Below are positions 29,522 to 50,720 of a DNA stretch of 64,000 nucleotides, in pieces. The first letter of the stretch is position 1. Each line of letters opens with the position of its first letter. Source of the stretch: Actinomycetota bacterium (GTDB lineage: Bacteria > Actinomycetota > Geothermincolia > Geothermincolales > RBG-13-55-18); NCBI GenBank assembly GCA_013178005.1, contig JABLXL010000002.1, positions 15,220-79,219 on the forward strand, written 5' to 3'. The translations under genes were made by a program, and so were the position numbers. The notes beneath the pieces were generated by a model. It did not search any database and was not told the DNA's origin. It saw only the letters and a list, made by a program, of their open reading frames with translations.

Positions 29522-29718
29522 CCCTTCCTCCTCTCCGGAACGCCGCCCAGGGCTTACAACCATCAATTCTATGCCGGGCGCCCCTTTTCGCCCAGGCGTT
29601 ACCCCGGAGATGGCCCTGTGATATACTTTTAGCGCCGCCGCCGGCGGCCGTCCTAAGGGGTATTTCACGGACAGCTTTTCCGTCACATCGGAGGTCCTTG
29701 GCGCTAAAGGAGGTAGGA

Positions 29719-30603: not shown

Positions 30604-30627
30604 GAACGGACCGGAAACGGGGTTGCT

Positions 30628-31515: not shown

Positions 31516-31723
31516 CTCCGCGTGGTCAGCGGGGTTATCTACCTCGGTCGGGAACGCGAAAAGCCGGCGTGGTTCGCGGTCGTTCAGGACAGGCCAAAAC
31601 CGAAACGTTGAGTAAGGGCAACGCACGGCGCGTCCGTGGCGCCTTGCCATGATGCCGGCCTTTGGGCGCGGAAGCCAACGGTTGCCTTTTGTCCCTGGAG
31701 GGATAGACATAGCGGGAGGTTGC

Positions 31724-32506
31724 ATGGAGTTCAAGTACCTGTTGGTGGAGACGGACGGCGAGGGCATCGCCACCATACGGCTCAACCGTCCCGAGGCCAG
31801 GAACGCCCTCAACCTGGAGCTCATCGCCGAGCTGGGAGAGGCGGCGGACATGCTGGCCAGGGACGAGGCCGTGCGGGCGGTGATCGTTACAGGCGGCGAG
31901 GAGAACTTCGCGGCCGGAGGCGACATCAAGGAGATGTCGGGCAAGTACGCGCCCGATATGCTGAACGCGTACGGGGCCGATCTTTCCGGTTTCGAGAAGA
32001 TCGAGCGCATACCCAAGCCGGTGATCGCCGCGGTGAGCGGCTACGCCCTGGGCGGAGGCACGGAGCTCGCCCTGGTGTGCGACATGATCGTGGCCTCGGA
32101 GACGGCCGTCTTCGGCATGCCGGAGATCACCCTGGGCATAATCCCTGGCGCTGGGGGCACCCAGAGGCTCCCCCGCCTCGTAGGGCCCAACCGGGCCAAG
32201 GAGATGATCTTCACCGGGTCCTTCTACGACGCCCGGGCATGCCTGGAGATGGGCCTGGTGAACAAGGTGGTGCCGGTGGAGGAGCTCATGACGGAGGCCA
32301 GGGAGCTGGCGAGGCGATGCATCCGCAACGGGGCCGTGGCGCTGGCCTGCGCCAAGGCGTGCGTAAACGAGGGGATGAACCTCGACCTCTACTCCGGGCT
32401 GGCATACGAGCGGAAGTGCTTTTCCCTGCTCTTCTCCACCGAGGACCAGAAGGAGGGCATGGCCGCCTTCAAGGAGAAGCGCAAGCCGGAGTTCAAGGGC
32501 CGCTGA
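31724..32506 (+). CDS. short-chain enoyl-CoA hydratase (crotonase, Crt-like)
   Basis: MEFKYLLVETDGEGIATIRLNRPEARNALN...AAVSGYALGGGTELALVCD... A GGGAGG RBS precedes the start. The long track ORF in this region is a read-through artefact of a different frame. Confidence 0.9.
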   Translation: MEFKYLLVETDGEGIATIRLNRPEARNALNLELIAELGEAADMLARDEAVRAVIVTGGEENFAAGGDIKEMSGKYAPDMLNAYGADLSGFEKIERIPKPVIAAVSGYALGGGTELALVCDMIVASETAVFGMPEITLGIIPGAGGTQRLPRLVGPNRAKEMIFTGSFYDARACLEMGLVNKVVPVEELMTEARELARRCIRNGAVALACAKACVNEGMNLDLYSGLAYERKCFSLLFSTEDQKEGMAAFKEKRKPEFKGR

Positions 32507-32583
32507 ACGCGCGGCGGAGCCTGAAGGAACAAACCCAAGGCGCCCCTTTGCCTTATCCGTATGTTCGAAGGGAGGAACACCAC

Positions 32584-33726
32584 GTGATCTCGTTTGAGTT
32601 GAGCGAGGAGCAGAAGGCCATCACCAAGGTGGCCCACGAGTTCGCCGAGAAGGAGATCCGCCCCGTGGCGGCGGAATACGACGAGGAGGAAAAGTACCCC
32701 GAGCAATTCATCGAAAAGGCCTTCAAGGCCGGCATGACCTACCTGTACGTTCCCGAGGAATACGGCGGCCAGGGGATGGATTTCCTCACCGCCTGCCTGG
32801 TCAACGAGGAGCTCTCCTGGGGATGCTGCGGTTTTGCCACCATCCTGGGGGCTAACGGCCTGGGGGTCACCCCGCTCCTGGTTGCGGGCACGGAGGAACA
32901 GAAGGAGAAGTACCTCTCGGACCTAACCTCCCGTCCCTCGCTGGCCGCCATGGCGCTCACCGAGCCCGATGCCGGGTCGGATGCGGCGGGGGTGAAGACC
33001 AGCGCGGTGCGGGATGGGGATGTATACGTGCTCAACGGCACCAAGTGCTTCATCTCCAACGGCGGCATCGCCGACCTCACCACCGTTTACGCCGTCACCG
33101 ACCCCTCCAAGGGAGTGCGCGGTCTCTCCTGTTTCCTGGTCCCCAAGGGGAACCCCGGCATCAGCGGGGGCAAGAAGGAGCGCAAGATGGGGGTGCGCGC
33201 CTCGGTCACCTCGGAGGTCATCCTCTCCGACTGCCGCGTGCCGGTCGAGGACCGGCTGGGCGAGGAGGGGGAGGGCTTCAAGATCGCCATGAAGACCCTG
33301 GACAAGGCGAGGGTGAACGTGGCATCGAATTCGGTGGGCATCGCCCGCGCCGCCTTCGAGGCGGCGGTGGATTACGCCAAGCAGAGGGTGCAGTTCGGCC
33401 GTCCCATCGCCGAGAACCAGGCCATCCAGTTCATGCTTGCGGACATGTCCATGGAAATCGAGGCCGCCAGGCTCATGTACATGAAGGCCGCATGGCTGGA
33501 GACCCAGGGGGCGAACTTCACCCGCGAGGCGGCCTACGCCAAGACCTTCTGTTCGGACATGGCCATGCGCGTGACCACCGACGTGGTGCAGGTCTTCGGC
33601 GGGTACGGGTACATGCGCGACTACCCGGTGGAGAAGTACATGCGCGACGCCAAGATAAACCAGATCTGGGACGGCACCAACCAGATACAGCGGATCGTGA
33701 TGGCCCGCAGCATCCTGGGAAAATGA
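32584..33726 (+). CDS. acyl-CoA dehydrogenase (butyryl-CoA dehydrogenase-like)
   Basis: GTG start after a GAAGGGAGGA RBS. The three ACAD domains are present and the C-terminus ends ...IYEGTNQIQ-like (IWDGTNQIQRIVMARSILGK). Confidence 0.9.
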   Translation: MISFELSEEQKAITKVAHEFAEKEIRPVAAEYDEEEKYPEQFIEKAFKAGMTYLYVPEEYGGQGMDFLTACLVNEELSWGCCGFATILGANGLGVTPLLVAGTEEQKEKYLSDLTSRPSLAAMALTEPDAGSDAAGVKTSAVRDGDVYVLNGTKCFISNGGIADLTTVYAVTDPSKGVRGLSCFLVPKGNPGISGGKKERKMGVRASVTSEVILSDCRVPVEDRLGEEGEGFKIAMKTLDKARVNVASNSVGIARAAFEAAVDYAKQRVQFGRPIAENQAIQFMLADMSMEIEAARLMYMKAAWLETQGANFTREAAYAKTFCSDMAMRVTTDVVQVFGGYGYMRDYPVEKYMRDAKINQIWDGTNQIQRIVMARSILGK

Positions 33727-33932
33727 CCGGGTCCGCGCACGGGCGGTCCCCGTCGGCCCGGGAGTCCTTGACGGGCGGGAAGAGTTGCGCACATTATGAT
33801 GCATGTGAGCCGGGCAGCAGCCCGGCGGCATGGTCCGCGGCGCCCCGCGGATGAGATGCGCGGGGCGCGCGAGAGTGAGCAGACAGGGAGGGTTCTCCAC
33901 GGAGAAACGGATGAGGCAAGAGGAGGTTGAGC

Positions 33933-35087
33933 ATGGACTTTGAACTCTCTCAGGAGCAGAAGGCCTTCTTCAAGGAGGTCAAGGAGTTCGCGGAAAAGGA
34001 GATCGCGCCCTTCACGGAGGAATACGACCGCAACAGCGAGTTCTTCTGGGATGGCTGGAAAAAGATGGGAGCAATGGGCCTCCTGGGCCTTCCCTTCCCC
34101 GAGGAGTACGGAGGGTCCGACGCGGGGGCCCTGGACACCGCCATCGCCATGGATGCCTTCGCGGCGGGGGGAGGGGACGCCGGCGTGTCGCTTTCCTGGG
34201 GTGCCCATACCATCATCGGGGGCGTGCCCATCTGGGTGATGGGAAACGAGGAACAGAAGAAGAAGTACCTCCCCGGAATGTGCAGCGGCGAGAAGGTGAG
34301 CTGCTTCGGGCTCACCGAGCCGGACGCCGGTTCCGACGCCGCTTCCCTGAAGACCACCGCGGTGCGGGACGGCGACGAGTACGTCATCAACGGCTCCAAG
34401 ATGTTCATCACCAACGGCCCCATCTGCGACCTTTGCATCGTGATGGCGGTGACCGACAAGGAAAAGGGCGGCGCGGGCATCAGCGCCTTCATCGTGGAGC
34501 GCGACACCCCAGGCTTCGAGGTCAGCCGTGAGCTGGACAAGATGGGCAACCGCACCTCTCCCACCGCCGAGCTGGCCTTCAACGACTGCCGCGTCCCGGC
34601 GGAGAACCTGCTGGGAGCGGAAGGCGAGGGTTTCTACGGGGTGGGCAAGGCCACCCTGGAGTGGGAGCGTGCCATCATGGTGGCCCCGGCGGTGGGCGGC
34701 ATGGAGTGCAACATCAACCGCTGTATCGAGTACGCCAAGGAGAGAAAGCAGTTCGGCAGGCCCATCGGCAAGTTCCAGGCGGTGGCCTTCAAGATCGCGG
34801 AGATGAAGTGCCTTCTTGACGCGGCTCGCCTCCTGGTCTACCGCGTGGCCTGGATGAAGGACCAGGGCATCCCGGCCATGATGGAGGCCTGCGTGTGCAA
34901 GCTCTTCGTCACCGAGAGCGCTTTCAAGGTGGCCAACGAGGCGGTGCAGATCTTCGGAGGCTACGGCTACATCCGCGAGTACCCGGTAGAGCGCACCCTC
35001 AGAGACGCCAAGCTGGGAACCATCGGGGCCGGCACCTCGGAGATCCAGAAGATGATCATCAGCCGGCTGCTCATGGGCAAGTTCTAG
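33933..35087 (+). CDS. acyl-CoA dehydrogenase (second paralog)
   Basis: A GAGGAGG RBS precedes the start. ACAD domains are present and the C-terminus ends ...GAGTSEIQKMIISRLLMGKF. Confidence 0.9.
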   Translation: MDFELSQEQKAFFKEVKEFAEKEIAPFTEEYDRNSEFFWDGWKKMGAMGLLGLPFPEEYGGSDAGALDTAIAMDAFAAGGGDAGVSLSWGAHTIIGGVPIWVMGNEEQKKKYLPGMCSGEKVSCFGLTEPDAGSDAASLKTTAVRDGDEYVINGSKMFITNGPICDLCIVMAVTDKEKGGAGISAFIVERDTPGFEVSRELDKMGNRTSPTAELAFNDCRVPAENLLGAEGEGFYGVGKATLEWERAIMVAPAVGGMECNINRCIEYAKERKQFGRPIGKFQAVAFKIAEMKCLLDAARLLVYRVAWMKDQGIPAMMEACVCKLFVTESAFKVANEAVQIFGGYGYIREYPVERTLRDAKLGTIGAGTSEIQKMIISRLLMGKF

Positions 35088-36933: not shown

Positions 36934-37032
36934 GGGCCGCGCGCGGAGCGCCCTCCCGTTCCGGCCGCGCGTGCTATCATGGGGAGCGTGTTCCCGAGTT
37001 CCTGCGAGAGGAAAGGAGATGCCTCGAAGGTC

Positions 37033-38529
37033 ATGTCCCCCGGGAGGCGTAAGCTGCGCGTGTTGATCGTCTCTGATGCCTGGGGATTCGGGCTCATGGA
37101 GACCAGGCCGCATCCCCTGTGGCAGGTCCGCTACTGGGCCATCCGCAACAAGGCCCTCCTGGTGCCCGAGTACGGGGCCATGTACATCGCCGCCTTCCTC
37201 AAGGGAAGGGGCTTGGACGTCGAGGTCGTCAACCTGGTAGCCGACGTCTTCGAGGACGAGTCCTGGTTCAGGGAGGTGGAGGAGGGGTTGCCGGAACACG
37301 CCCCGTCCACCGCTCCCATCGGGAGCGGGGAGGCGATGACGCGCGCGCGGGAGAACCTGGAGGCAAGGGTCAAGAGTGCACAGCCGGACGTCATCCTCTT
37401 CCCCATCTCCATCTATTACATAGCCTTGCACGCCCGCGAGATGCTGAAGCGCTTGCGGGAGCTGGCGCCCGGAGCGGCCCTGGTGGCCGGCGGTGTGTAT
37501 TCCACCATGCATCCCCAGGAGATCATGGACGACGGAGCCGCGGACTTCGTAGTGCGGGGAGAGGGGGAGTGGACCGCCCTGGAGCTGCTGCGGGCCCTGG
37601 AGGAAAGGGGATCGAACGCGGACTTCTCCGGCATCGCCGGCCTCAGCTGGCGAGACCCCGACGGAGGGGTGGTGCATAACCCGGACAGGGAGCGGGAGAA
37701 AAACATCGACCTCTTCCCCCACATCTATACCGTCTCCGAGGAGTTCGCCATCGGTAACCGCTACCGCATCCTGAAATCCCTGAACCCCCTGGACGACTAC
37801 ATCCCGGGAGGCGGGTTCCTCACCTCCCGCGGCTGCCCGGAGGAATGCACCTTCTGCCTCGACCCCGCGGTCTGGAAGAGGAAGACGCGGTTCCATTCCC
37901 CGGGGTACGTGCGCGAGGTTCTGGATTACTGCTGGGGAAATTTCACTGCGGGCGAGAGGAGCTTCTACTTCGGTGACGCCACCTTCGCCCTCAACCGCCC
38001 GCGACTACGGGCGCTCCTGGAGACGGTCCGGGAGTTCCCCTTCACCTACCACATCCAGACGCGCGCCGATTCGCTCACCCCGGAGGTGCTGGAGGGCCTG
38101 CGGGAGAGCAACTTCGGGAGCGTGGCCATCGGGGCGGAATCGTTCGATGACCGCATCCTGCGGGAGGTGGTGAAGAAGCGCACCACCAGGGAGGAGATCC
38201 TCGGCGCCGTGAGGGCGGTGAAAGCCCACGGCATGACCCCCATCCTCACCTTCATCGCCGGCCTGCCGGGGGAGAGCCGGGAGAGCATGGAGCGCACGGT
38301 GGAGATCCTGCGCCAGGAGGGGATTACCGAGGCGACCTTCTTCCCCCTGGTGGTCTTCCGGGGCACCGCGCTTTACCGCACCTTCCTGGAGACCTTCGGC
38401 GAGGAGGAGCGGGAACGCCTGCGCCTCAATCCCTGGTCGGAGGAATTCTGTTTCGCGGGCGAGGAGTTCTCCTCCATGCAGGAGCTCATCGACTATACCC
38501 AGACGCTCAACGACGCCATCCGCGCCTGA
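37033..38529 (+). CDS. B12-binding-domain radical SAM enzyme
   Basis: The N-terminal KLRVLIVSDAWG... is a Rossmann-like B12-binding domain. The radical SAM motif is CPEECTFC. The start is ambiguous between 36979 and 37033. Confidence 0.85.
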   Translation: MSPGRRKLRVLIVSDAWGFGLMETRPHPLWQVRYWAIRNKALLVPEYGAMYIAAFLKGRGLDVEVVNLVADVFEDESWFREVEEGLPEHAPSTAPIGSGEAMTRARENLEARVKSAQPDVILFPISIYYIALHAREMLKRLRELAPGAALVAGGVYSTMHPQEIMDDGAADFVVRGEGEWTALELLRALEERGSNADFSGIAGLSWRDPDGGVVHNPDREREKNIDLFPHIYTVSEEFAIGNRYRILKSLNPLDDYIPGGGFLTSRGCPEECTFCLDPAVWKRKTRFHSPGYVREVLDYCWGNFTAGERSFYFGDATFALNRPRLRALLETVREFPFTYHIQTRADSLTPEVLEGLRESNFGSVAIGAESFDDRILREVVKKRTTREEILGAVRAVKAHGMTPILTFIAGLPGESRESMERTVEILRQEGITEATFFPLVVFRGTALYRTFLETFGEEERERLRLNPWSEEFCFAGEEFSSMQELIDYTQTLNDAIRA

Positions 38530-38741: not shown

Positions 38742-39830
38742 GTGAGGGAAATGAACACCAAGGAGTTGAGGACCTTCGCGCGCAGCAGGATCTTCTCCAC
38801 TTTCGAGGAAAGGGCCGCCAAGGGGGGTTTCGACCGCGGTTTGTGGAGGGAGATGGCGGAGTCAGGGGTCGTCGGGATGGCCCTGGACAAACGGTACGGC
38901 GGCGGGGGAGCCGGGATGGGGGAATTCGTGGAATGCGTGTCCCTTCTCGCCGGCGAGGGCCTTGACCTGGGGCTGACCCTGAGCCTGATCGATCATGTCG
39001 TGCTCTGTGCCTACCCCCTGCAGGTCTTCGGCTCGAAGTGGTTGAAGGAGCGCTACCTGCCCCCGCTGTGCAAGGGCGACTGCATAGGGGCGGCGGCGGT
39101 TTCGGAGGATGACGGCGGCGGGGACCCGAAACGCATGCGGAGCTCGGCGGCGCGCGCGGGAGACGGCTATACCCTGAGCGGGGTCAAAGGACCGGTGACC
39201 AACGCCCCCGTGGCCGACCTCTTCCTGGTGGTGGCGGCCACCGATCCCGGCGCGGGGAAGGACGGGCTTTCCGCTTTCCTGGTGGAGAGGGCGGCTGGCG
39301 TGCGGGTGGAGGAGCTGGGGCTGGGATTTCTTCCCACCTCTCCCCACGGGCGCGTGATCCTGGACGGGGTGCGGGTCTCCGCGGATCACCTCCTGGGGGA
39401 AGAGGGGTGGGGGCACGAGAAGATCTCCCGCTCTCTCTTCATCTGGGAGAGGAGCGCCTTGATCCCGGTAGTGGTCTCGTACCTCGAGCGCTGGCATCAC
39501 CTGGTGGTTTCCAGCCTGGACCCCGAGGGCATCTCGCCCGATTTGCGCACTCTCCTGGCCCGCAGGAAGGTGGAGCTCACCGCGTACCGCGCCCTTGGTT
39601 CCCGACTCCTGGAACTCACCTTCGGCGAGGCGGAGAACGGGCGCGAGCGCCTGGAGCTCCTGCTCTTTTTCGGCAAAACCCTGCCGGAGTGGGTGGAGAG
39701 CATGCGCGCCGCGGTGGAGGAGGCCAGGGTGCCGCTGGACGAGACCCTGCGGGCCATGGACCGTGACCTGCGCCTCCTGGAGGTGGGCGGCTCACTTCTC
39801 GACTGGCAGTTCCAGAAACTCCTTTTCTGA
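38742..39830 (+). CDS. acyl-CoA dehydrogenase family protein (third paralog, divergent)
   Basis: The ACAD N- and middle-domain pattern is present (...GDPKRMRSSAARAGDGYTLSGVKGPVTNA...). The C-terminal domain is shorter and less conserved. Confidence 0.7.
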   Translation: MREMNTKELRTFARSRIFSTFEERAAKGGFDRGLWREMAESGVVGMALDKRYGGGGAGMGEFVECVSLLAGEGLDLGLTLSLIDHVVLCAYPLQVFGSKWLKERYLPPLCKGDCIGAAAVSEDDGGGDPKRMRSSAARAGDGYTLSGVKGPVTNAPVADLFLVVAATDPGAGKDGLSAFLVERAAGVRVEELGLGFLPTSPHGRVILDGVRVSADHLLGEEGWGHEKISRSLFIWERSALIPVVVSYLERWHHLVVSSLDPEGISPDLRTLLARRKVELTAYRALGSRLLELTFGEAENGRERLELLLFFGKTLPEWVESMRAAVEEARVPLDETLRAMDRDLRLLEVGGSLLDWQFQKLLF

Positions 39831-39841
39831 ACCTGCATGGT

Positions 39842-40060
39842 GCGGAATCGTCCCGGCGCGCTTCCCGGTCTTAAGAAGTCCCTGAAGACTTCCCCGTCAT
39901 CCTGACAGAGCAAGCAAGTTCGGCGGGGAAAAGAGTCGGTCCTCCGGGCGTTCAATCCGTGAACCATGTTGCCGGGTCCGTTCTCCGCATGCGGAATCGT
40001 CCCGGGGCGCTCTCCGGGTTGAAGAAATCCCGGGAGCCCTCCCAGTCATACTTACAAAGC
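39842..40060. repeat. imperfect direct repeat (2 x ~80 bp) in the leader region of the glycyl-radical-enzyme gene
   Basis: tgcggaatcgtcccgg(c/g)gcgct(t/c)tccgg(t/g)(c)t(t)aagaa(g/a)tccc...agcaagcaa appears twice. Confidence 0.6.
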
Positions 40061-40282
40061 AAGCAAACAAGATAGTTGGGGAGGGAGAAGTATCCTACCG
40101 ATTAAGCCGGATTATACGGCGCTACGCTTGCCTTAACTTGGGTCAGGGAGCGCTTTTTGCTAACCTGTTAAGTGACGGGCGTCATTTCGCCACGGAGCGC
40201 GCGGATATATCCTGGCGACAGGAGCAGGCGTGTTCTTCGAGGCCGGGCGGGTCCGGCCGGAACCCTGGGAGGTGCGGAGAGG

Positions 40283-42682
40283 ATGAGGGAGAGCGAGGTC
40301 ATATCGCCCGAGCGGATATGGCGTGCGTCGGACAAGCTCACGCCGCGGGTGCGCAGGCTGCGCGAGGAATATTATTCCATCGAGGAAAGGCCGTACTTCC
40401 GCAACGAGGTCATGCCCTTCACCACCGGGACGGACTGGGACGTGGTGTGGTCCCCGGTGAACTGGGGCATCATCCCCGAGCTGGTGCCCTTCATGGGGGC
40501 TTTCTCCGAGTCGTTGCGCGCATCGGCCCGCGTGGTGGACCTGCCGGACGGCTTCTGGGGGCGTTCGCTGGTCATGCGGAAGGCCCTTTTCTTCCGGGAG
40601 GTATGCCGCCGCCACCTGCCGGTGCGTATCCTGGAGGGCGAGCTCATCGTGGGAGGCCAGTTCAACACCGCGCTTTCCAGGTGCCTGAACCGTCGTGAGG
40701 CCAGGAAATGGAAGAAATCGGTGGATAAGTGGTGGAAGCGGGCGGCGGAGATAAACGAGCTGGGCATCGGCAACGCCGGAGCGGTGCCGGGCCACCTCAT
40801 CCCGGATTATCCCCGCGTGCTCAAGTCCGGCTTCTCGGGCATCCGCGCGGAGCTCGCGGAGATGCTCGCGAAGGTCGATGACGAGGCCCACGCCGATTTC
40901 CTGCGTGCCCTCATGGAATGCTGCGATGCCGCGCGGGAGATCGCGGCGCGCTACGCGGAGGAGGCCGACAGGCTTGCGGAGTCGGAAGCGGACGCGGCCA
41001 GGGCGGAGGAGCTGCGCGAGATAGCGCGCATCTGCCGCAAGGTGCCCTGGGAGCCGGCGGAGACTTTCCACGAGGCACTGCAGGCGCTGTGGTTCACGCA
41101 CATGCTGGTCATGGCCGCGGAGTCCTATCCCGGGGCGGGGCTCTCCCACGGGCGCTTCGACCAGTACATGCTTCCCTATTACCGGGCCGACCTGGAGGCC
41201 GGGAGGCTCACGCGCGAGCGGGCTAAGGAACTGCTCCAGTGCTATTGGATAAAGCACAATTACGCCTATGACTTCCAGTGCCGGGTGATGAACAACCAGG
41301 GTATCAACTCCGGCTTCGGGCAGCTCATCACCATCGGGGGGATAAACGCGGACGGAAGCGACGCCTCCAACGAGCTCACCTGGCTGATCCTCGAGGTCAT
41401 CGAGGAGATGAACATGCTCGAGCCCAAGCCCAATATCAGGCTGCATCAGGGGACCCCGGAGCCGCTCCTGCGCAGGGTGGCGGAGATGATCTCCGGGGCG
41501 CAGGGCTCCCCCTTCCTCATGAACTTCGACGAGAACTCCATGCGCGGGCTCGCTTGGCAGGGTCTGCCCGAGGACCGCCTCTGGGATTATGCCCCCGTGG
41601 GATGCCTGGAGAACACTCTCCAGGGGGACGACCGGTCCGGCACCGTGGACGTCAACGTCAACCTGGCCAAGGCGGTGGAGCTGGTTTTCTTCCGCGGCCG
41701 GGACGCAGCAACCGGAAGGCGCATCGGGCCGGATACGGGCAGGGTGGAAGACCTTTCCACCTGGGAGGATTTCAAGGCCGCCTTCGAGGCCCAGATGAAG
41801 GCGCTCATGGACCACATGCTCTCCATCAGCGACGAGGCCGACCGCATCCGCTCCACCTGGGAGCCCACCCCCTACCTCTCTACCCTGGTGGGGGGTTGCG
41901 CGGAGAGCGGTAAGGACATCACCCAGGGAGGGGCGCGCCACAACTACATCACCGTGGAGGGCGTGGCCTTCGCCACCGCGGCGGATTCCCTGGCGGCGGT
42001 GAAGAAGCTGGTTTACGAGGACGGCAGGATCAAGATGGATGATCTTTCCAGGGCCATACGGGAGAACTTCGAGGGCCACGAGGCGCTGCGCCAGACCCTG
42101 ATCAACAAGGCCCCCAAGTACGGCAACGACGACGATTACGCCGACGAGGTGGCGCGATACCTCTCGCGGCTGTGGACGGTGATGGTCAGCGAGCGCGTGT
42201 CCCCGGCCACCGGTAGGAGATACCGCGCCGGTTACCTCTCGTGGAATTACTGGATAGCCTTCGCTCCCGGCACGGCGGCCACGCCCGACGGCAGGAGGAA
42301 GGGGACCTTCCTTTCCAACGCCATCGGCCCCGTGGACGGGACGTGCCACAACGGCCCCACGGCGGAGCTCCTCTCCGTGGGCAAGATGGGCCTGGAGACG
42401 GCGCCCAACGGCGCCTCCCACACCATGAGCTTCAGCCCTTCCATGCTGCGCGACGAGGAGCACGTGTCCAAGCTCATGGCCTTCCTGCGCGCCTACGGCG
42501 AGAAGGGAGGCACGGCGCTGCAGGTGAACGTCATCGACCCGGAGACCCTGCGCGAGGCGCAGCGCAGGCCCGAGGATTACCGCAACCTGCTGGTGCGCGT
42601 TACCGGATACAACGCGTATTTCGTCATGCTGGGCCGGGAGATGCAGGATGAGATCATCGCGAGGGAATCCCATGAGCTCTGA
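40283..42682 (+). CDS. glycyl radical enzyme (PFL2/dehydratase-eliminase-like subclass), substrate unknown
   Basis: The C-terminal glycyl-radical motif is RVTGYNAYFV. The catalytic-loop Cys is followed by Glu (VGCLEN), as in glycerol/propanediol/choline/hydroxyproline GRE eliminases. The protein is about 800 aa. An RBS (GGAGGTGCGGAGAGG) precedes the start. The co-located activase gene overlaps its 3' end. Confidence 0.9.
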   Translation: MRESEVISPERIWRASDKLTPRVRRLREEYYSIEERPYFRNEVMPFTTGTDWDVVWSPVNWGIIPELVPFMGAFSESLRASARVVDLPDGFWGRSLVMRKALFFREVCRRHLPVRILEGELIVGGQFNTALSRCLNRREARKWKKSVDKWWKRAAEINELGIGNAGAVPGHLIPDYPRVLKSGFSGIRAELAEMLAKVDDEAHADFLRALMECCDAAREIAARYAEEADRLAESEADAARAEELREIARICRKVPWEPAETFHEALQALWFTHMLVMAAESYPGAGLSHGRFDQYMLPYYRADLEAGRLTRERAKELLQCYWIKHNYAYDFQCRVMNNQGINSGFGQLITIGGINADGSDASNELTWLILEVIEEMNMLEPKPNIRLHQGTPEPLLRRVAEMISGAQGSPFLMNFDENSMRGLAWQGLPEDRLWDYAPVGCLENTLQGDDRSGTVDVNVNLAKAVELVFFRGRDAATGRRIGPDTGRVEDLSTWEDFKAAFEAQMKALMDHMLSISDEADRIRSTWEPTPYLSTLVGGCAESGKDITQGGARHNYITVEGVAFATAADSLAAVKKLVYEDGRIKMDDLSRAIRENFEGHEALRQTLINKAPKYGNDDDYADEVARYLSRLWTVMVSERVSPATGRRYRAGYLSWNYWIAFAPGTAATPDGRRKGTFLSNAIGPVDGTCHNGPTAELLSVGKMGLETAPNGASHTMSFSPSMLRDEEHVSKLMAFLRAYGEKGGTALQVNVIDPETLREAQRRPEDYRNLLVRVTGYNAYFVMLGREMQDEIIARESHEL

Positions 42683-43625
42683 GCCGGACGCCGTGACCGG
42701 GGTGGTCTTCAACCTGCAGCGGTATTCCACCGAGGACGGCCCCGGCATCCGCACCACCGTTTTCCTCAAGGGATGCCCCATGCGCTGTCCCTGGTGCCAT
42801 AACCCGGAAGGCCTGGCGAGGGACCCCCAGTTGGTCTGGTACGAGGTGCGCTGCATAGGAGCGCACGACTGTCTGGCCGCCTGCCCGCGCGGGGCCCTGA
42901 CCCTAACCCCCGAGGGCATGGTGATCGACAGGGAGCGCTGCGACGCCTGCGGGAGGTGCGAGGAGGCCTGTCCCGCCGCCGCCCTGGAGGTCATCGGAAA
43001 GGTGAGGACGGTTGAGGACGTGGCGGCCGAGGCGTTGAGGGACCGCGTCTTCTACGAAAAGTCGGGGGGAGGGGTGACCCTCTCCGGGGGGGAGCCCGCG
43101 CTGCAGTTCGACTTCGCCCTCTCGCTCATGCGCAAGCTGCGCGACGAGGGGGTGCACCTGGCCCTGGACACCTGCGGCGGGGTGAGCTGGGAGAGGCTGG
43201 GGCCCCTGGTGGAGCTCGCGGACCTGGTGCTGTTCGACCTCAAGGTCATGGACGCGGAAAAGCACCGCGCCTACACCGCGGTCCCGCTAGCGCTGGTGCT
43301 GGACAACGCGCGCGCCGTGTCCCGCGCCGGAAAACCGATGTGGGTACGCACCCCGATCATCCCCGGGTACACCGACGGCGAGGAGAACGTGAGGGCCATA
43401 GCCCGCTTCATCAGGGACGAGCTTCCCGCCGTGGAGAGGTACGACCTGCTTGCCTTCAACAACACCTGCGACGCCAAGTACCGGCGCCTGGACATGGTCT
43501 TTCCCCTCGCCGGGGAGGGGCTGATAGCGGAGGACTGGATGGCCCGGCTTGCCGAGGCGGCCGAGGACGAGGGTCTGAGCATCGCCCGCTGGTCGGGGGC
43601 GACGGCGAGGGCGAAGGGGGGATGA
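42672..43625 (+). CDS. glycyl-radical-enzyme activating enzyme (radical SAM with two extra ferredoxin-like 4Fe-4S motifs)
   Basis: CPMRCPWCHNPE is the radical SAM CxxxCxxC motif. CLAACPRGAL and CDACGRCEEACP are additional cluster motifs typical of GRE activases of the dehydratase class. Confidence 0.9.
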   Translation: MSSEPDAVTGVVFNLQRYSTEDGPGIRTTVFLKGCPMRCPWCHNPEGLARDPQLVWYEVRCIGAHDCLAACPRGALTLTPEGMVIDRERCDACGRCEEACPAAALEVIGKVRTVEDVAAEALRDRVFYEKSGGGVTLSGGEPALQFDFALSLMRKLRDEGVHLALDTCGGVSWERLGPLVELADLVLFDLKVMDAEKHRAYTAVPLALVLDNARAVSRAGKPMWVRTPIIPGYTDGEENVRAIARFIRDELPAVERYDLLAFNNTCDAKYRRLDMVFPLAGEGLIAEDWMARLAEAAEDEGLSIARWSGATARAKGG

Positions 43626-43628
43626 GGG

Positions 43629-44423
43629 ATGGAGATGCCCAAGGAGGTCCTGGACCTGTTCGCGGAGGAGATGGCCGCGAAGTTCCTTGCCACCGTGGAT
43701 CCCGAGGGAAAGCCCAACGTGGCCCTGATCGTGACCCTGCAGCCTCCGCCGGACGGCAGGCGCGACAGGCTCATCTTCGGTGAGTTCCTGATGTGGAAGA
43801 GCAAGGAGTACCTGCGGGATAACCCCAGGGTGGCCGCGGCGGTGGTGAACACCAAGCTGCGCATGGCCTCCCTCACCGGCGACTTCCGGGGTTTCGAGAA
43901 GACCGGTCTCTACAAGGACGCCCTTGATTCCTCTCCTCTCATGCGCTACAACGCCTATTCCGGAGTGAGGGCCGCCGGGGTGATCGACGTGCGCGAGGTG
44001 TGGCCGGCGCGCTCCGCGTCCATGGCCGCGGTGCCCCTCGACTTCCTTCGCGTGAGGGCGCACCGGCGGGTGGAGGAAAACGGCTCGGTGCCCGTTCCGC
44101 CCATGGTGCGGGAGAAGTTCGTCAAGCTCACCTCGGTGAAGGCGCTGGCGGTCATGGGCGATGACGGTTACCCCCGCATATACCCGGTCATGGCGGCCTC
44201 GCCGGCGGGGAGGGGGGGATTCGCCCTACGCGTGACCTCGTACAATCGCGAGCTCGCCCAGGTGGAGGTCCCGTGTCCGGCGGCGCTTTGCGTGCTCACC
44301 TTCGACGTCAAAAGCTACAAGGTTAAGGGCGAACTCCATCCCCTAGGCCGCAGCACGATGCTCTTCCGCGTCAAGGAGGTCTATAACGCCATGCCTCCCC
44401 TGGCCGGAGACCTCATCGTATAG
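43629..44423 (+). CDS. pyridoxamine-5'-phosphate-oxidase-like (split-barrel FMN/F420-binding) family protein, tandem-domain
   Basis: Two halves each resemble the PNPOx-like split barrel (FLATVDPEGKPNVALIV..., ...LAVMGDDGYPRIYPVMA...). A GGGGGGATGAGGG RBS precedes the start. Confidence 0.5.
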   Translation: MEMPKEVLDLFAEEMAAKFLATVDPEGKPNVALIVTLQPPPDGRRDRLIFGEFLMWKSKEYLRDNPRVAAAVVNTKLRMASLTGDFRGFEKTGLYKDALDSSPLMRYNAYSGVRAAGVIDVREVWPARSASMAAVPLDFLRVRAHRRVEENGSVPVPPMVREKFVKLTSVKALAVMGDDGYPRIYPVMAASPAGRGGFALRVTSYNRELAQVEVPCPAALCVLTFDVKSYKVKGELHPLGRSTMLFRVKEVYNAMPPLAGDLIV

Positions 44424-45715: not shown

Positions 45716-45900
45716 TAAGAATAGGGTCGTAAGAATAGGGTCGTATCTTGAATTTTTCCTCGCTCTGCTTAAGCGTGGCTCTTCGCCGCAAAGCGTTGGC
45801 AATACGCTTCGACTCCTAAGAATGGGGTCGTATCTTGAATTTTTCCTCGCTCTGCTTAAGCGTGGCTCTTCGCCGCAAAGCGTTGGCAATACGCTTCGAC
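45716..45900. repeat. tandem repeat (2 x ~100 bp) sharing the GGGTCGTATCTT...TTTTTC head motif with the 4.4-kb array
   Basis: agaatggggtcgtatcttgaatttttcctcgctctgcttaagcgtggctcttcgccgcaaagcgttggcaatacgcttcgactcct is repeated. It contains an internal palindrome gcgtattgccaacgc-like region (gcaaagcgttggcaatacgcttcg). Confidence 0.7.
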
Positions 45901-46029
45901 TCCTGTTTTCAACCCGTGCCTGGAGCTCAACCACCGGTTATTTCTCGGCCAGCGTCGAGCCCGTCCGTCTTTTCCGCCCGCATTCCCGGGAGAAGAACCA
46001 AAATCCTTAATATGTCCGTCTGTCGCTCA

Positions 46030-46380
46030 TCTGCTAAACACAACAGAAAAACAGCCTTATGACCGCTTGCATTGGCCGATGGCCCTGGCCTCCAGTCCTC
46101 AGGCCGATGGCCAGCCTTGACCCCGAGGCCTACTGCTCAGCTGCTTAACACACCAGAAAAAGCGGCCTTATAACCGCTTTAATTGGCCGATAGCCCCGGC
46201 CACCAGTCCTCAGGCCTATGGCCAGCCTTGACCCCGAGGCCTACTCAGGCCTATGGCCAGCCTTGACCCCGAGGCCTACTGCTCAGCTGCTTAACACACC
46301 AGAAAAAGCGGCCTTATAACCGCTTTAATTGGCCGATAGCCCCGGCCACCAGTCCTCAGGCCTATGGCCAGCCCCGACCC
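46030..46380. repeat. tandem repeat array (~3 copies of ~120 bp), each unit containing a hairpin
   Basis: Each unit reads ctgctcagctgcttaacacaccagaaaaagcggccttataaccgctttaattggccgatagccccggccaccagtcctcaggcctatggccagccttgaccccgaggcctact. The hairpin is aGCGGccttataaCCGCt. Confidence 0.75.
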
Positions 46381-46430
46381 CCAGGCCTAAGGCCCGAGGC
46401 GGGGAAGGGGGGAAGAGGGGTATATAATCT

Positions 46431-47983: not shown

Positions 47984-48865
47984 CTATTGGTCAGAGCCCC
48001 GGTCGTCCCTTTTTCTCTTTTTTTCGGGGACGACGAACACGCCGCCCTCGGGGTGACCCTCTCGGGCCTCCCAGAGCTGGATGGAATCGGTGGGGCAGGC
48101 GGCGGCGCATTCGCCGCAGTTGGTGCACTTCTCGTAGTCTATAGAGGCGAAGCCGTTGCTCACGTGGATGGCGTCGGCGGGGCACACCTTCTCGCATTTC
48201 TTGCAACCGATGCAGGCCACCTTGCATACGCTCAAGGCCTTCTTTCCCGTGTACTGGCACTTGCAGCGCACGAATACGGTGGCTGACGCGGGCACCATCT
48301 GGATCAGGTCGCGTGGGCACACGTCTGCGCACAGCCCGCATCCGGTGCATTTCCTCACGTTGACGTGCCTTATGTGCTCCTCGTCGAAGGTGATGGCGTT
48401 GACGGGGCACACGTTCGCGCAGTCCTCCAGCCCGAGGCACCCGAAGGGGCATGCCTTGCCTCCGCCGGAGGCGATCTCGGCCGCGCGGCATGAGTTCACG
48501 CCCTGGTAAATGGCGCGGATGGGCGAGAGAGACTTTCCGCCCCGGCAGTGGATATGGGCCACCAGGGGCACGAGGGAGCCGACCTCGACCCCCATGATCC
48601 TCCCCACCTCCGCGGCCACGTCCGGCCCTCCCGCCTTGCATACGGTGACGGGGGCATCGCCTTTCACCACCGCCTCGGCGGCCGCCTCGCAGCCGGGGAG
48701 GCCGCACGCTCCGCAGTTGGAGCCCGGCAAGGCCTCCAGTACCTCGGCTACACGCGGATCCACCTCCACGTGAAAGCGTTTCGAGGCCACGGCGAGGATG
48801 GCTCCCAGCAGGGCCCCGAAGCCCGAGAGGGCTATGGCCGCTTTCCAGATCAGGGACCAGTCCAT
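47984..48865 (-). CDS. rnfB: Rnf electron-transport complex subunit B (polyferredoxin-type)
   Basis: An N-terminal TM anchor, a Cys cluster CGACGLPGC, and several 4Fe-4S ferredoxin motifs (CxxCxxCxxxCP x3-4) are present. It is the last gene of the rnf operon. Confidence 0.9.
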   Translation of the reverse strand: MDWSLIWKAAIALSGFGALLGAILAVASKRFHVEVDPRVAEVLEALPGSNCGACGLPGCEAAAEAVVKGDAPVTVCKAGGPDVAAEVGRIMGVEVGSLVPLVAHIHCRGGKSLSPIRAIYQGVNSCRAAEIASGGGKACPFGCLGLEDCANVCPVNAITFDEEHIRHVNVRKCTGCGLCADVCPRDLIQMVPASATVFVRCKCQYTGKKALSVCKVACIGCKKCEKVCPADAIHVSNGFASIDYEKCTNCGECAAACPTDSIQLWEAREGHPEGGVFVVPEKKRKRDDRGSDQ

Positions 48866-48887
48866 CCGTCGCTCCTTTATAGCTATC

Positions 48888-49511
48888 CTATAGTCCGAAC
48901 ATGCCTGCGAATCCCATGAAGGCCAGGGAGAAGAGGGCGGCAGCGATGAAGGCGATGGGCACGCCGCGGAAGAACTTGGGAACGGGCGCCAGGTCGAGGC
49001 GCTCGCGCATGGCGGCGAAGATGATGAGCACCAGGGAGAAGCCCACCGCCACCCCCAGGGTATAGACGACCGATTCCAGGAACCCGTAGTTATAGGCGAT
49101 GCTCAGCTTGGTGAAAAAGCCCGGCTTCACGCTCTCGGTGGCCGCGGCGAGCACGGCGCAGTTGGTGGTGATGAGGGGAAGGTAGATACCCATGGCCCGG
49201 TAGAGGGGTGGGCTGGTCTTCTTGATCACCATCTCCACGAACTGCACCAGACTGGCGATGACCAGGATGAAGGTGGGGATGTACAGGAACTGCCCCACCC
49301 CCAGGGGTTCCAGGGCGTAGTTCCATGCCAGCCAGCTCACCGAGGTGGCCATGACCATGACGAAGATGACGGAGATGCTCATACCCAGGGAGGTCTCCAG
49401 GCTGTTGGAGACCCCGAAGAAGGGGCAGAGGGCGATGAAGCGGATGAGCAGGATGTTGGCCACGATGGCGGCGCCGAAGAAGAGCAGGAAGTAACGCCAG
49501 GCCTCATGCAT
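48888..49511 (-). CDS. rnfA: Rnf complex subunit A
   Basis: A 207-aa polytopic membrane protein of the RnfA/NqrE family (…LGMSISVIFVM…TTNCAVL…). Confidence 0.9.
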   Translation of the reverse strand: MHEAWRYFLLFFGAAIVANILLIRFIALCPFFGVSNSLETSLGMSISVIFVMVMATSVSWLAWNYALEPLGVGQFLYIPTFILVIASLVQFVEMVIKKTSPPLYRAMGIYLPLITTNCAVLAAATESVKPGFFTKLSIAYNYGFLESVVYTLGVAVGFSLVLIIFAAMRERLDLAPVPKFFRGVPIAFIAAALFSLAFMGFAGMFGL

Positions 49512-49514
49512 CGC

Positions 49515-50144
49515 TCATCCCTCCTTGACTTCCGGCTTGCGGCGCTGCTGGTACCACTGCAGCAGCGCGGACAGCAGGGCGAAGGTTATGAACGCGCCCG
49601 GGAAGAGGATGAGGATCACCGGCATCTTGTCCGTCCCCAGGCTGATTATGGTCCGCTTGAACATCACGATCTTTCCGGTCCCGAAGAGCTCGCGGAACAC
49701 GCTCATGATAAGCAACACGCAGGTGTATCCCAAGCCTATGCCGAGGCCGTCCATGGTAGCATGCGCGACCTTGGCGCTGGAGGCGTAACCCTCCGCACGC
49801 GCCAGGATGATGCAGTTAACCACGATGAGGGGTATCCAAACCCCCAAACGTTCATATACGGCGGGTATGGTTTTCAAGGTGAGGTCCACGATGGTCACAA
49901 AGGAGGCGATGACCACAATGAAGATGGGGATGCGGACCTGGTCGGGTATGAAGTTCCTGATAAGGGAGATGATGATGTTGGAGCAGGTGAGCACGAAGAT
50001 GACCGCCATCCCCATGAAGATGCAGTTCTCCACCTTGGTGGAGATGGCCAGAGAGGAACATAAGCCCACCATCAGGACCAGGAGGGGATTGGTGGTGATG
50101 AAGCCCTTGATGAACTCGCCCCAGAGCGTCCTCTCCTTTTCCAT
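49515..50144 (-). CDS. rnfE: Rnf complex subunit E
   Basis: A 209-aa membrane protein of the RnfE/NqrD family (…NPLLVLMVGLCSSLAIS…VVNCIILARAE…). Confidence 0.9.
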   Translation of the reverse strand: MEKERTLWGEFIKGFITTNPLLVLMVGLCSSLAISTKVENCIFMGMAVIFVLTCSNIIISLIRNFIPDQVRIPIFIVVIASFVTIVDLTLKTIPAVYERLGVWIPLIVVNCIILARAEGYASSAKVAHATMDGLGIGLGYTCVLLIMSVFRELFGTGKIVMFKRTIISLGTDKMPVILILFPGAFITFALLSALLQWYQQRRKPEVKEG

Positions 50145-50156
50145 ATTCTTCCTCTC

Positions 50157-50720
50157 CTAGCTCCGCTCCTGCAGATGGCGCCAGATGTCCAGGGCCATAT
50201 TCACGCCGTTGGTGATGCCCCGCGAGGTGTAGGTGGCGCTGCTCACGCCGTCCACGTTCTCCCCCAGGGTGAGCGGGTCGGGGCCCTTGCCCTCGAACTG
50301 CCCCAGAAAACTCGGGTTCTCCGCCGCCACCGCTCCCAGACCGGGGGTCTCTTCGTTGGTGACCACCTTTATCCCCGTGACCTTGCCCTCAGCGTCGACG
50401 CCCACCGCCATGGTGATGAAGTTGTATCCCTTGCTTTTGAGCACGAAGGCGTAACCGATGACGTTGCCTGATTGATCGAGGCCTTCGAAGGCACCGCTCA
50501 GGTCGGGGAAGTCGCCCTGCAGGGACGATAACAGCTCGGGGTCCTCCTGCGGGCGCGCCTCGATGGACGAGAGCACTGTCTCGGCCGCCTCCGCCCGTTG
50601 CTTGTGCTCCTGTTCGTCGATGCGCTCCTTAACCACGGTGTAGGTGAAGCCCAGGCCCACCGCGGCCACCGCGCAAACCAGGAAAAGGCGAAGGCCAAGG
50701 TTCAATATAATCCTGGTCAT
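50157..50720 (-). CDS. rnfG: Rnf complex subunit G (FMN-binding)
   Basis: MTRIILNLGL... has an N-terminal TM followed by an FMN_bind domain (…GVSSATYTSRGITNGV…). The ATG overlaps the rnfD stop (ATGA). The 505-aa track ORF in this frame is an upstream read-through artefact. Confidence 0.85.
   Translation of the reverse strand: MTRIILNLGLRLFLVCAVAAVGLGFTYTVVKERIDEQEHKQRAEAAETVLSSIEARPQEDPELLSSLQGDFPDLSGAFEGLDQSGNVIGYAFVLKSKGYNFITMAVGVDAEGKVTGIKVVTNEETPGLGAVAAENPSFLGQFEGKGPDPLTLGENVDGVSSATYTSRGITNGVNMALDIWRHLQERS

Follow-up and report, generated by a model that had tools for sequence, protein, structure and literature searches.

A glycyl radical enzyme encoded with its activase and a tandem PNPOx-like protein: a candidate eliminase- or isomerase-type system found in Actinomycetota and other phyla

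The three-gene cassette

The window analyzed here, a stretch of 64,000 nucleotides (nt) from an Actinomycetota bacterium of the Geothermincolia (GenBank assembly GCA_013178005.1, contig JABLXL010000002.1, positions 15,220 to 79,219 of the forward strand), carries on its plus strand three consecutive genes encoding a glycyl radical enzyme (GRE) of 799 residues (positions 40283 to 42682), a GRE-activating radical SAM enzyme of 325 residues (42648 to 43625), and a tandem split-β-barrel, PNPOx-like protein of 264 residues, designated X264 (43629 to 44423). The GRE gene lies in the frame of the open reading frame (ORF) 40172-42682; the ATG at position 40283 is preceded by the ribosome-binding stretch GGGAGGTG/GGAGAGG, and the protein ends with ESHEL before the stop codon. 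Pfam analysis of the translation returned the PFL-like domain (residues 166 to 655, E = 6e-144) and the Gly_radical domain (residues 679 to 781, E = 2.6e-26), with E values that exclude a chance match. The AlphaFold2 (AF2) model of the protein had a pLDDT of 85.8.

The glycine radical loop, RVTG775YNAYFV (residues 772 to 781; positions 42596 to 42625), aligns G775 with G763 of glycerol dehydratase (GDH). The published C-terminal fingerprint of GREs, RVxG[FWY]x6-8[FL]x4Qx2[IV]x2R with x free (PMC13450708), was matched over its full length by R772, V, T, G775, Y776, L783, Q788, I791, and R794. The preliminary description of this DNA had called the protein a GRE on the strength of this loop, which the Pfam domains and the complete fingerprint bear out. 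It had also regarded the Thr of the loop as unusual, and that idea was dropped. Thr occupies the free position of the fingerprint, which in 121 related representatives of 50%-identity clusters with a recognizable loop was held by Ala (65 representatives), Ser (22), Thr (13), Trp (9), or other residues, and 9 of the 13 Thr-bearing representatives belong to unrelated GRE clusters with RVTG outside the clade of the window GRE. Within the clade, T774 was invariant in a 50-member alignment. The Leu of the GC-L-E motif is more clade-specific, since only two cases were found outside the clade. Compared with standard GREs, the N-terminal 165 residues are remodeled: extra residues are inserted around FTTGTxWD, and ~30 residues are missing further on. 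On these features, the protein is predicted to be a real, oxygen-sensitive radical enzyme of a widespread, uncharacterized family.

The activase was identified by TIGR02494 (329.8 bits versus a cut-off of 174) and by the Pfam Radical_SAM and Fer4 families. It contains the radical SAM motif CX3CX2C (C43-x3-C47-x2-C50) and a ferredoxin-like two-cluster insert (residues ~66 to 115). Its ORF overlaps the GRE stop codon, as had been noted from the sequence, by 35 nt, or by 14 nt if the alternative ATG at 42669 is used. This arrangement is conserved, an overlap or a start within 30 nt of the GRE stop being present in 54 of 71 related loci, and the translational coupling that had been proposed is plausible. 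The activase gene was downstream of the GRE gene in 65 of the 70 loci with enough flanking DNA.

X264 begins 3 nt past the activase stop codon and contains only two Cys residues. The preliminary description had stated that accessory subunit genes were absent, which holds for small Fe-S subunits: the intergenic DNA between 38.5 and 46.5 kb contained no small Cys-rich ORF with coding-like GC content at third codon positions (GC3), and the surveyed gene maps of related loci contained no gene for a β, γ, or δ small subunit. The statement had overlooked X264, and no other feature sets the system apart as clearly as this conserved third gene and its tandem PNPOx-like product. ORF clustering over 85 loci located an X264 homologue directly after the activase gene in 61 of the 70 loci with enough downstream DNA, and these loci reach from Actinomycetota to Asgard archaea. 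Of 60 loci, 44 have an X264 gene that overlaps the activase ORF or begins at most 30 nt past its end. The GRE-activase-PNPOx trio was also found on Jordarchaeales and Thorarchaeota contigs. One sister-clade locus contains the trio with a single-domain PNPOx-like gene of 139 codons, and another has a PNPOx gene of 150 codons upstream of the GRE gene. Reverse searches from X264 homologues displaying 36% identity led back to GRE-activase-X264, with one case amid unrelated housekeeping genes.

The fold of X264 was predicted with high confidence by AF2 (pLDDT 92.1, pTM 0.90). The window copy matches PNPOx_N (PF01243) with 22.9 bits (E = 1.2e-4) for a gathering threshold of 28.1, many homologues have a precomputed PF01243 match, and the sources name these homologues "PNPOx family protein." Foldseek matched the halves of the model, with a probability of 1.00, to HupZ, the Desulfovibrio vulgaris FMN-binding protein, and an F420 reductase; the halves also resemble other PNPOx-like barrels, and each half shares the fold of 2E83, 7KQ2 (HupZ), and 3F7E (E values of 1e-6 to 1e-4, target-normalized TM scores of 0.70 to 0.79). 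Comparison of the N-terminal and C-terminal halves by hhalign gave a probability of 98% and an E value of 3e-13. The split-barrel fold of each half, together with this match between the halves, indicates that X264 is, according to the model, a fused pseudo-dimer of split barrels, which distinguishes it from 2E83, 7KQ2, and 3F7E, as do an identity of 17 to 21% and the strict linkage to a GRE cassette. The predicted fold class is that of the FMN-, F420-, or heme-binding PNPOx split barrels, and X264 probably binds a flavin. Residues 106 to 110 of X264 (positions 43944 to 43958) form an R-Y-N-A-Y loop that resembles G-Y-N-A-Y in the glycine loop of the GRE, with YNAY invariant and the Arg nearly so. 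This likeness is probably a coincidence, because sister-clade partners have RYNSY or lack the motif.

Catalytic residues and substrate pocket

Residue equivalences were established by phmmer alignments to PDB entries and by MAFFT alignment with annotated genes taken from a plasmid collection, namely, Clostridium butyricum dhaB1 (in a dhaB1-dhaB2-dhaT context), Klebsiella pneumoniae cutC, Parabacteroides distasonis hypD, and Escherichia coli ybiW. The Cys loop, G440-C441-L-E443-N-T-L-Q-G-D-D-R-S-G-T-V455-D456-V-N-V-N (positions 41600 to 41662), has the core V-G-C441-L-E443-N-T (41600 to 41620), and GCLENTL was kept in 117 of 120 close homologues. In the phmmer alignments, C441 and E443 fell on C433 and E435 of GDH and on the catalytic Cys and Glu of CutC, HypD, and IseG; MAFFT gave the same pairing for all four plasmid-derived enzymes, C441 falling on C433 of GDH (with E443 on E435), C493 of CutC, C454 of HypD, and C441 of YbiW in the numbering of the aligned sequences. 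In the GRE superfamily, this Cys sits on a finger loop inside a 10-stranded barrel, and the TM scores of the AF2 model to GRE structures (0.76 to 0.79) agree with such a fold. The CXE motif of eliminases and isomerases is therefore present as C441-L-E443, in line with the motif of five characterized enzymes and with the Cys/Glu assignment originally read from the sequence. That reading had taken the motif for a hallmark of dehydratases and lyases, which was retained for the eliminase class and not for dehydration specifically, since CXE is common to the 1,2-eliminases and the newer GRE isomerases HplG, YbiW, and PflD (PMC13450708). In every structurally characterized 1,2-eliminase and in these isomerases, the Glu binds a substrate hydroxyl (PMC13450708). 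A third catalytic residue, His171 (codon at 40793 to 40795), aligns with GDH His164, the His of HypD, and YbiW H165; CutC has an Asp at this position. His164 has been proposed to protonate the leaving hydroxyl in GDH (PMC13450708).

Residues C441, E443, H171, and G775 were invariant in 50 clade members with identities down to 42%. The same alignment showed invariance of E280-x-YPG-x-G286, G346-Q347, T454-V455-D456, L652-S653-W654-N655, and R772-x-T774-G775-YNA. Of the active-site residues of GDH that were compared, only H164, C433, and E435 were retained. The MAFFT alignment revealed replacement of GDH H281 by A285 (Pro in most of the clade), S282 by G286, Y336 by S343, Y339 by G346, D447 by V455, Y640 by L652, and S642 by W654. 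Two segments of the pocket contain some of these changes: the pocket loop N342-S-G-F-G346-Q347 (positions 41306 to 41323), in which G346 takes the place of Tyr339, and the pocket-lining strand S653-W654-N655-Y656-W657 (42239 to 42253), in which W654 aligns with Ser642 of GDH and with a Phe of IseG. Since the replacements are mostly small or apolar and are combined with a Trp-Asn-Tyr strand, they suggest that the substrate may be larger and partly apolar.

Comparison to characterized enzymes placed the GRE among the eliminases without assigning it to any of them. Identity to GDH, CutC, HypD, and YbiW was 31 to 33% over ~740 to 750 aligned columns, far from the >60% identity to a characterized GRE that would have spoken against a distinct enzyme. 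The best PDB matches in phmmer searches were CutC (393 bits), GDH (388 bits), HypD (372 bits), propanediol dehydratase (PD; 367 bits), IseG (354 bits), and HpsG (353 bits), and Foldseek searches with the AF2 model returned HypD, PD, GDH, and CutC with E values of ~1e-47 to 1e-48 and TM scores of 0.76 to 0.79. A tblastn search of the plasmid collection recovered eliminases, PFL-type enzymes, and unnamed GREs only. The best NCBIfam equivalog match was the HpsG model (462 bits for a cut-off of 1000), followed by HypD NF043068 (458.5 bits versus 1100) and CutC TIGR04394 (390 bits versus 1050); the models for the C-S lyases IslA, IseG, and HpsG and for the dihydroxypropanesulfonate (DHPS) dehydratase HpfG gave 462 and 432 bits versus 1000. 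All equivalogs scored below half of their cut-offs, and the broad PFL2/GDH subfamily model TIGR01774 (510.7 bits) also remained below its cut-off of 678.2, so that no existing name applies.

The specificity residues of the individual eliminases point in the same direction. GDH (C. butyricum DhaB1; 1R8W and 1R9D) and PD (5I2G) have the same fold as the window GRE (TM scores of 0.76 to 0.78), the catalytic Gly, Cys, Glu, and His residues of GDH align with those of the window GRE, and both GDH and the window GRE have an activase with a ferredoxin-like insert encoded directly downstream. However, identity to GDH is only 32.9%, the six glycerol-binding residues H281, S282, Y339, D447, Y640, and S642 are all among those replaced, the N-terminal 165 residues are restructured, and the cassette contains a PNPOx-like gene instead of an alcohol dehydrogenase partner. 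HypD (6VXC and 6VXE) was the best Foldseek match (E = 3.9e-48) and shares the CXE motif and the His, but displays 31.9% identity; a P5C reductase is not encoded nearby in the window, and D298 of P. distasonis HypD, at the position of GDH His281, is replaced by Ala or Pro at residue 285 in the window clade. We take D298 to be the equivalent of the amine-binding Asp278 of Clostridioides difficile HypD. The C-S lyases HpsG, IslA, and IseG (6LON, 7KQ3, and 5YMR) have the same catalytic loop. In IseG, the strand Arg, presumably the sulfonate-binding Arg of the IslA Arg678 type, corresponds to Gly650 of the window GRE; of the Arg/Gln/Arg sulfonate clamp, this one residue was mapped, and no sulfite reductase gene was found near the cassette. 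CutC (5FAU, 5A0U, and 9F3W), the top PDB match in phmmer searches, has the same fold, but T-S-T at the positions of GDH residues 446 to 448 is replaced by T454-V455-D456, and the window locus lacks microcompartment genes. Because the specificity residues of GDH, PD, CutC, HypD, IslA, and HpsG are all replaced, the window GRE is, judging from the alignments, none of these enzymes. The inspection of the pocket by alignment, which the preliminary description had recommended, thus found GDH-, CutC-, HypD-, and IslA-type residues replaced.

Clade and genomic context

More than 120 proteins with 64 to 97% identity to the GRE, mostly from metagenome-assembled genomes (MAGs) of Geothermincolia, were retrieved by a word-indexed search. 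Their names are generic or conflicting (PFL family, formate C-acetyltransferase, and HypD, the latter given to several proteins by JGI); the nearest named genome is that of "Candidatus Solincola daggyaiensis" (91% identity). In a scan of one genome per species, a relative was detected in 293 genomes. The best 80 of these relatives were full length and at least 60% identical (60 to 97%), and they span Actinomycetota, Chloroflexota, Desulfobacterota, Acidobacteriota, Planctomycetota, Spirochaetota, Bacillota, and one Helarchaeota MAG. An exhaustive HMMER search of 1.84 billion cluster representatives gave successive levels of 955 bits (54% identity), ~725 to 730 bits (45 to 47%), and 510 bits (38%); beneath the clade were generic GREs with 34 to 41% identity that mostly aligned only from residue ~90 to 170 onwards. 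Searching from a sister sequence added members from Njord-, Jord-, Thor-, and Promethearchaeota, Nezhaarchaeales, and Abyssubacteria. The Asgard proteins were 55 to 62% identical to the window GRE in the 50-sequence alignment, with 55 to 57% for the Thorarchaeota proteins P0476 and P0486. By these sequence comparisons, the GRE clade is discrete, strongly conserved, and uncharacterized, and literature searches returned nothing on the clade or on GRE-PNPOx pairing. Three representative proteins, remote relatives, have the unusual N terminus of the clade and have lost the radical machinery: in P0249, Phe replaces the catalytic Cys (SGFHETT) and the glycine loop reads RIFGQ, and P0281 and P0317 lack both the Cys loop and the Gly loop. 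These three proteins may be GRE-derived pseudoenzymes.

The GRE gene is preceded on the plus strand by a 452-nt intergenic leader (39831 to 40282). This leader contains a 77-nt direct repeat specific to the window, whose copies (39841-39917 and 39990-40066) are 81% identical and 149 nt apart; the repeat was not present in the leaders of the closest relatives and its folding was not significant. A search of the leader against Rfam returned zero matches, and a riboswitch or other RNA element was rejected as its identity. The proximal part of the leader (~40130 to 40230) is conserved with one related locus (L019).

Further upstream, the plus strand encodes a divergent acyl-CoA dehydrogenase (ACAD)-like protein (38742 to 39830), in which Pfam detected the N-terminal and middle domains only and whose best NCBIfam matches, PigA and RedW, were far under their cut-offs. 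It is preceded by a B12-binding radical SAM protein identified by Pfam (36979 to 38529) with weak HpnJ and BchE matches, a neighbor restricted to Geothermincolia that lies within 3 kb upstream of the GRE gene in 17 loci, and by a β-oxidation block, assigned by Pfam analysis of the ORF translations, comprising a 3-hydroxyacyl-CoA dehydrogenase, two enoyl-CoA hydratases, and two ACADs (29698 to 35087). Other upstream genes of the same strand encode an FAD protein with an amine oxidase fold and a ThiS-like protein of 92 residues. This upstream arrangement is syntenic in close relatives (for the β-oxidation block, in the 81%-identical relative L001) and not beyond them. Downstream of the cassette, the minus strand contains a putative Rnf complex operon (47984 to 53141; RnfB, A, E, G, D, C), read from gene sizes and from synteny with L001, and tandem repeats of 87 nt (two copies, 98% identical), 146 nt (two copies, 97%), and 111 nt (two copies) occur at positions 45716 to 46389, downstream of a convergent FAD gene.

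Of the 85 loci, 36 have an ACAD-like gene next to the cassette. These genes belong to three nonorthologous types, which are 22 to 33% identical to the ACAD-like protein of the window and occupy different positions: upstream of the GRE gene in the Solincola type, after X264 in the Anoxymicrobiaceae type, and directly after the GRE gene in Dehalococcoidia and Acidobacteriota. The mutual distance of these groups and their different positions make it look as though ACADs had been recruited repeatedly to bacterial cassettes. This repeated recruitment, together with the β-oxidation block, suggests that the pathway feeds acyl-thioester metabolism. The neighborhoods did not reveal the substrate: ORF clustering in 85 loci and Pfam analysis of 272 ORFs recovered only the activase, X264, and the ACADs.

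The remaining neighbors are lineage-specific. They include GH51-like, CCG Fe-S, MFS, and SHC-like toroid genes in loci of the Anoxymicrobiaceae type, periplasmic binding proteins and UPF0047 in Dehalococcoidia, a patatin-like phospholipase of ~300 residues encoded on the same strand 1.0 to 2.4 kb upstream of the GRE gene in three Desulfobacterota loci (L050, L062, and L065), and a carboxylesterase that follows the Jordarchaeales cassette. A sister-clade GRE (P0242, locus L086; 45% identical, with GCLENT and LSWN motifs) is encoded in a glpK/glycerol-3-phosphate dehydrogenase operon with the gene order PNPOx, GRE, C-terminal fragment of glycerol-3-phosphate dehydrogenase, activase, DUF4125, GlpK (727 bits for a cut-off of 590), GlpA-like, Pyr_redox, and DUF1667. 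This operon and the patatin and carboxylesterase genes hint at a connection to acyl or glyceryl lipids. In one uncultured Dehalococcoidia locus (L042), a second GRE-like ORF of 943 codons lies directly after the cassette, at ~14.3 to 17.2 kb.

Proposed reaction and alternatives

We consider it fairly probable that the window GRE is a new enzyme of the 1,2-eliminase or isomerase type, functioning in a self-contained three-gene cassette with its activase and the tandem PNPOx-like protein. Its chemistry is probably of the eliminase type, the three-component architecture would set the clade apart from the known GREs, and the earlier description of an eliminase-like enzyme distinct from the X-succinate synthases (XSS) was reasonable. 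The reaction would begin with the installation of a radical on Gly775 by the activase, as expected from the family membership of this radical SAM enzyme with its ferredoxin-like insert, followed by transfer of the radical from Gly775 to Cys441. The thiyl radical of Cys441 would take a hydrogen atom from the carbinol carbon of the substrate, and Glu443 would bind and deprotonate the carbinol hydroxyl to give a ketyl-type radical. The leaving group on the neighboring carbon would then depart with the help of His171, as in GDH and HypD, and the product radical would regain a hydrogen atom from Cys441. Conservation of His171 favors an oxygen leaving group, most likely water or an alkoxide, and the enzyme would probably cleave a C-O bond. 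HpsG may provide a useful mechanistic analogy: it takes a hydrogen atom from C2 of its glyceryl-type substrate and drives out a group at C1 (PMC13450708).

Several observations weigh against this interpretation. Combination of the CXE motif and the His is kept across many GREs, and these residues do not fix the leaving group. The pocket was interpreted from sequence alignment to structures and not from inspected coordinates, and the AF2 model has low confidence at residues 335 to 337, 683 to 689, and 776 to 782, beside the glycine loop. The window copy of X264 is under the Pfam cut-off, and some members of its fold bind heme or F420. The link to acyl-CoA may be lineage-specific, since an ACAD is missing from the archaeal cassettes and from several of the bacterial ones, and the neighborhoods are mixed outside the trio, no family being present in more than six of the ORFs in Pfam surveys of 140 and 132 neighboring ORFs.

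The role of X264 may be considered in relation to the accessory proteins of other GREs. Small subunits are known from HPAD, BSS, and MASS only and are Fe proteins that resemble HiPIPs or rubredoxin (PMC13450708). The β and γ subunits of benzylsuccinate synthase (BSS), the γ subunit of HPAD, and the β, γ, and δ subunits of MASS resemble X264 in being encoded by a conserved extra gene cotranscribed with the genes for the GRE and its activase. In contrast to these small Fe-S or Fe proteins, X264 is a 264-residue tandem split barrel, and as a putative partner it would be of a different kind. We hold it quite possible that X264 is a dedicated electron carrier that reduces the cluster of the activase; it might, with slightly less likelihood, be a flavin-dependent enzyme acting on the GRE product, and, more doubtfully, a structural or regulatory partner. 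A PNPOx-like protein with an unexplained role, LssP, and a DUF4125 protein are also encoded in the GRE operon described in a publication on limonene. That system was rejected as a match for the window clade, since it is a BSS-like XSS of another clade. The presence of LssP in a limonenylsuccinate synthase operon speaks slightly more for general support of GREs, for instance by supplying electrons to the activase, than for chemistry on a specific substrate. Both this operon and the sister-clade glpK operon encode DUF4125 and a PNPOx-like protein.

Among the alternatives, the one that survives best, and which we nevertheless regard as unlikely, is a reaction type new to GREs, in which, for example, an acyl-CoA or a lipid-bound substrate would be rearranged or undergo elimination and the flavoprotein would be an obligatory redox partner in each turnover. 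The conserved third component is not an Fe-S protein and is undescribed for GREs, the ACADs were apparently recruited independently, the N-terminal region departs from that of standard GREs, and the score obtained with TIGR01774 places the enzyme below even the broad PFL2/GDH model. However, the complete eliminase catalytic set is retained, making known chemistry the simpler reading, and activated GREs normally require no redox partner (PMC13450708).

We consider it very improbable that the enzyme is an alkyl- or benzylsuccinate-type XSS adding a hydrocarbon to fumarate, a function that has been proposed in the literature for Asgard PFL-like GREs and for Archaeoglobus PflD. Zhang et al. (2021) designated GREs of Hermod- and Thorarchaeota as Ass/Bss (PMC8163825), and the clade members P0476 and P0486 bring this proposal close to the window GRE. 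A single catalytic Cys instead of a Cys-Cys pair, nearby β-oxidation and ACAD genes, and small or apolar pocket replacements that could accommodate a hydrocarbon are also compatible with it. However, the published case consisted of 29 to 33% identity and the single Cys (PMC8163825), which are true of every eliminase alike, and the clade retains CXE and the His of the eliminases without exception. All characterized XSS retain small subunits, and the α subunit alone is insoluble (PMC13450708). XSS function is thus unlikely because neither the window nor the surveyed gene maps contain β, γ, or δ subunit genes, as already argued in the preliminary description, and because similarity to XSS is much weaker, with overall scores of 242 bits for MasD and 212 bits for TutD in PDB phmmer searches versus 350 to 393 bits for the eliminases, and with clearly lower Foldseek matches for BSS, MASS, and HPAD (E values of ~1e-36 versus 1e-48).

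An arylacetate-type GRE decarboxylase (HPAD, IAD, or PhdB) acting on a carboxylic acid is just as improbable. HPAD also has a Glu two residues past the catalytic Cys, and the decarboxylase family is among the matches (308 bits for IAD and 262 bits for HPAD), but these scores are under those of all eliminases, no HPAD-type γ subunit gene was found at the window locus, and the eliminase general acid His171 is conserved. Finally, a pyruvate or 2-ketoacid formate-lyase (PFL), which would make acyl-CoA and formate directly, so that the adjoining ACADs would need no CoA ligase, as none is conserved, and which is suggested by homologues named "formate C-acetyltransferase" or "pyruvate formate lyase family protein," is ruled out in practice by the sequence, because PFL works with a pair of neighboring cysteines, Cys418 and Cys419 (PMC12338860), while C441 is preceded by Gly440, and because similarity is low (110.7 bits versus a cut-off of 994.2 for TIGR01255, and 94 bits for E. 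coli PFL in the PDB search).

A more specific and speculative proposal, to which we assign little likelihood, is that the cassette is an anaerobic C-O lyase of ether or glyceryl lipids. The enzyme would take a hydrogen atom from a carbinol carbon of glycerol, as HpsG does on dihydroxypropanesulfonate, and would expel an alkoxide, to which His171 would give a proton. Alkylglycerols or archaeal ether lipids would thereby lose a fatty or isoprenoid alcohol, and the products would enter β-oxidation, with the ACADs, and glycerol metabolism, the dedicated flavoprotein aiding activation or product reduction. Weak hints in this direction come from the pocket, apparently enlarged and more apolar than that of GDH, from the sister-clade GRE in the glpK/glycerol-3-phosphate dehydrogenase operon, from the three types of ACADs, from the patatin, carboxylesterase, and α/β-hydrolase neighbors, and from the isoprenoid-type FAD enzymes, the HpnJ-like radical SAM protein, and the SHC-like toroid protein in actinobacterial loci.

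According to a 2026 review, experimental validation is missing for entire GRE clades, and none of the archaeal PFL-like GREs has been assigned a function (PMC13450708). Species-level genomes that carry the clade described here number at least 293 and come from subsurface and sediment lineages, among them Geothermincolia, Dehalococcoidia, Anaerolineae, Desulfobacterota, Acidobacteriota, Planctomycetota, Spirochaetota, Bacillota, Helarchaeota, Thorarchaeota, Jordarchaeales, and Njordarchaeota. The public names of the clade, PFL, HypD, or hydrocarbon-activating enzyme, are without good support, and formate production or hydrocarbon activation deduced from the presence of the gene is unsupported by the catalytic residues or by the operon structure. 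Being sharply delimited and highly conserved across phyla, the clade is a strong target. The PNPOx-like partner, apparently obligatory, would be a new kind of GRE-associated component and may bear on the bottleneck of GRE activation in vitro. If the lipid lyase proposal were true, the cassette would provide an oxygen-independent route for the breakdown of ether lipids in anoxic sediments, and it would be the first function assigned to an archaeal PFL-like GRE.

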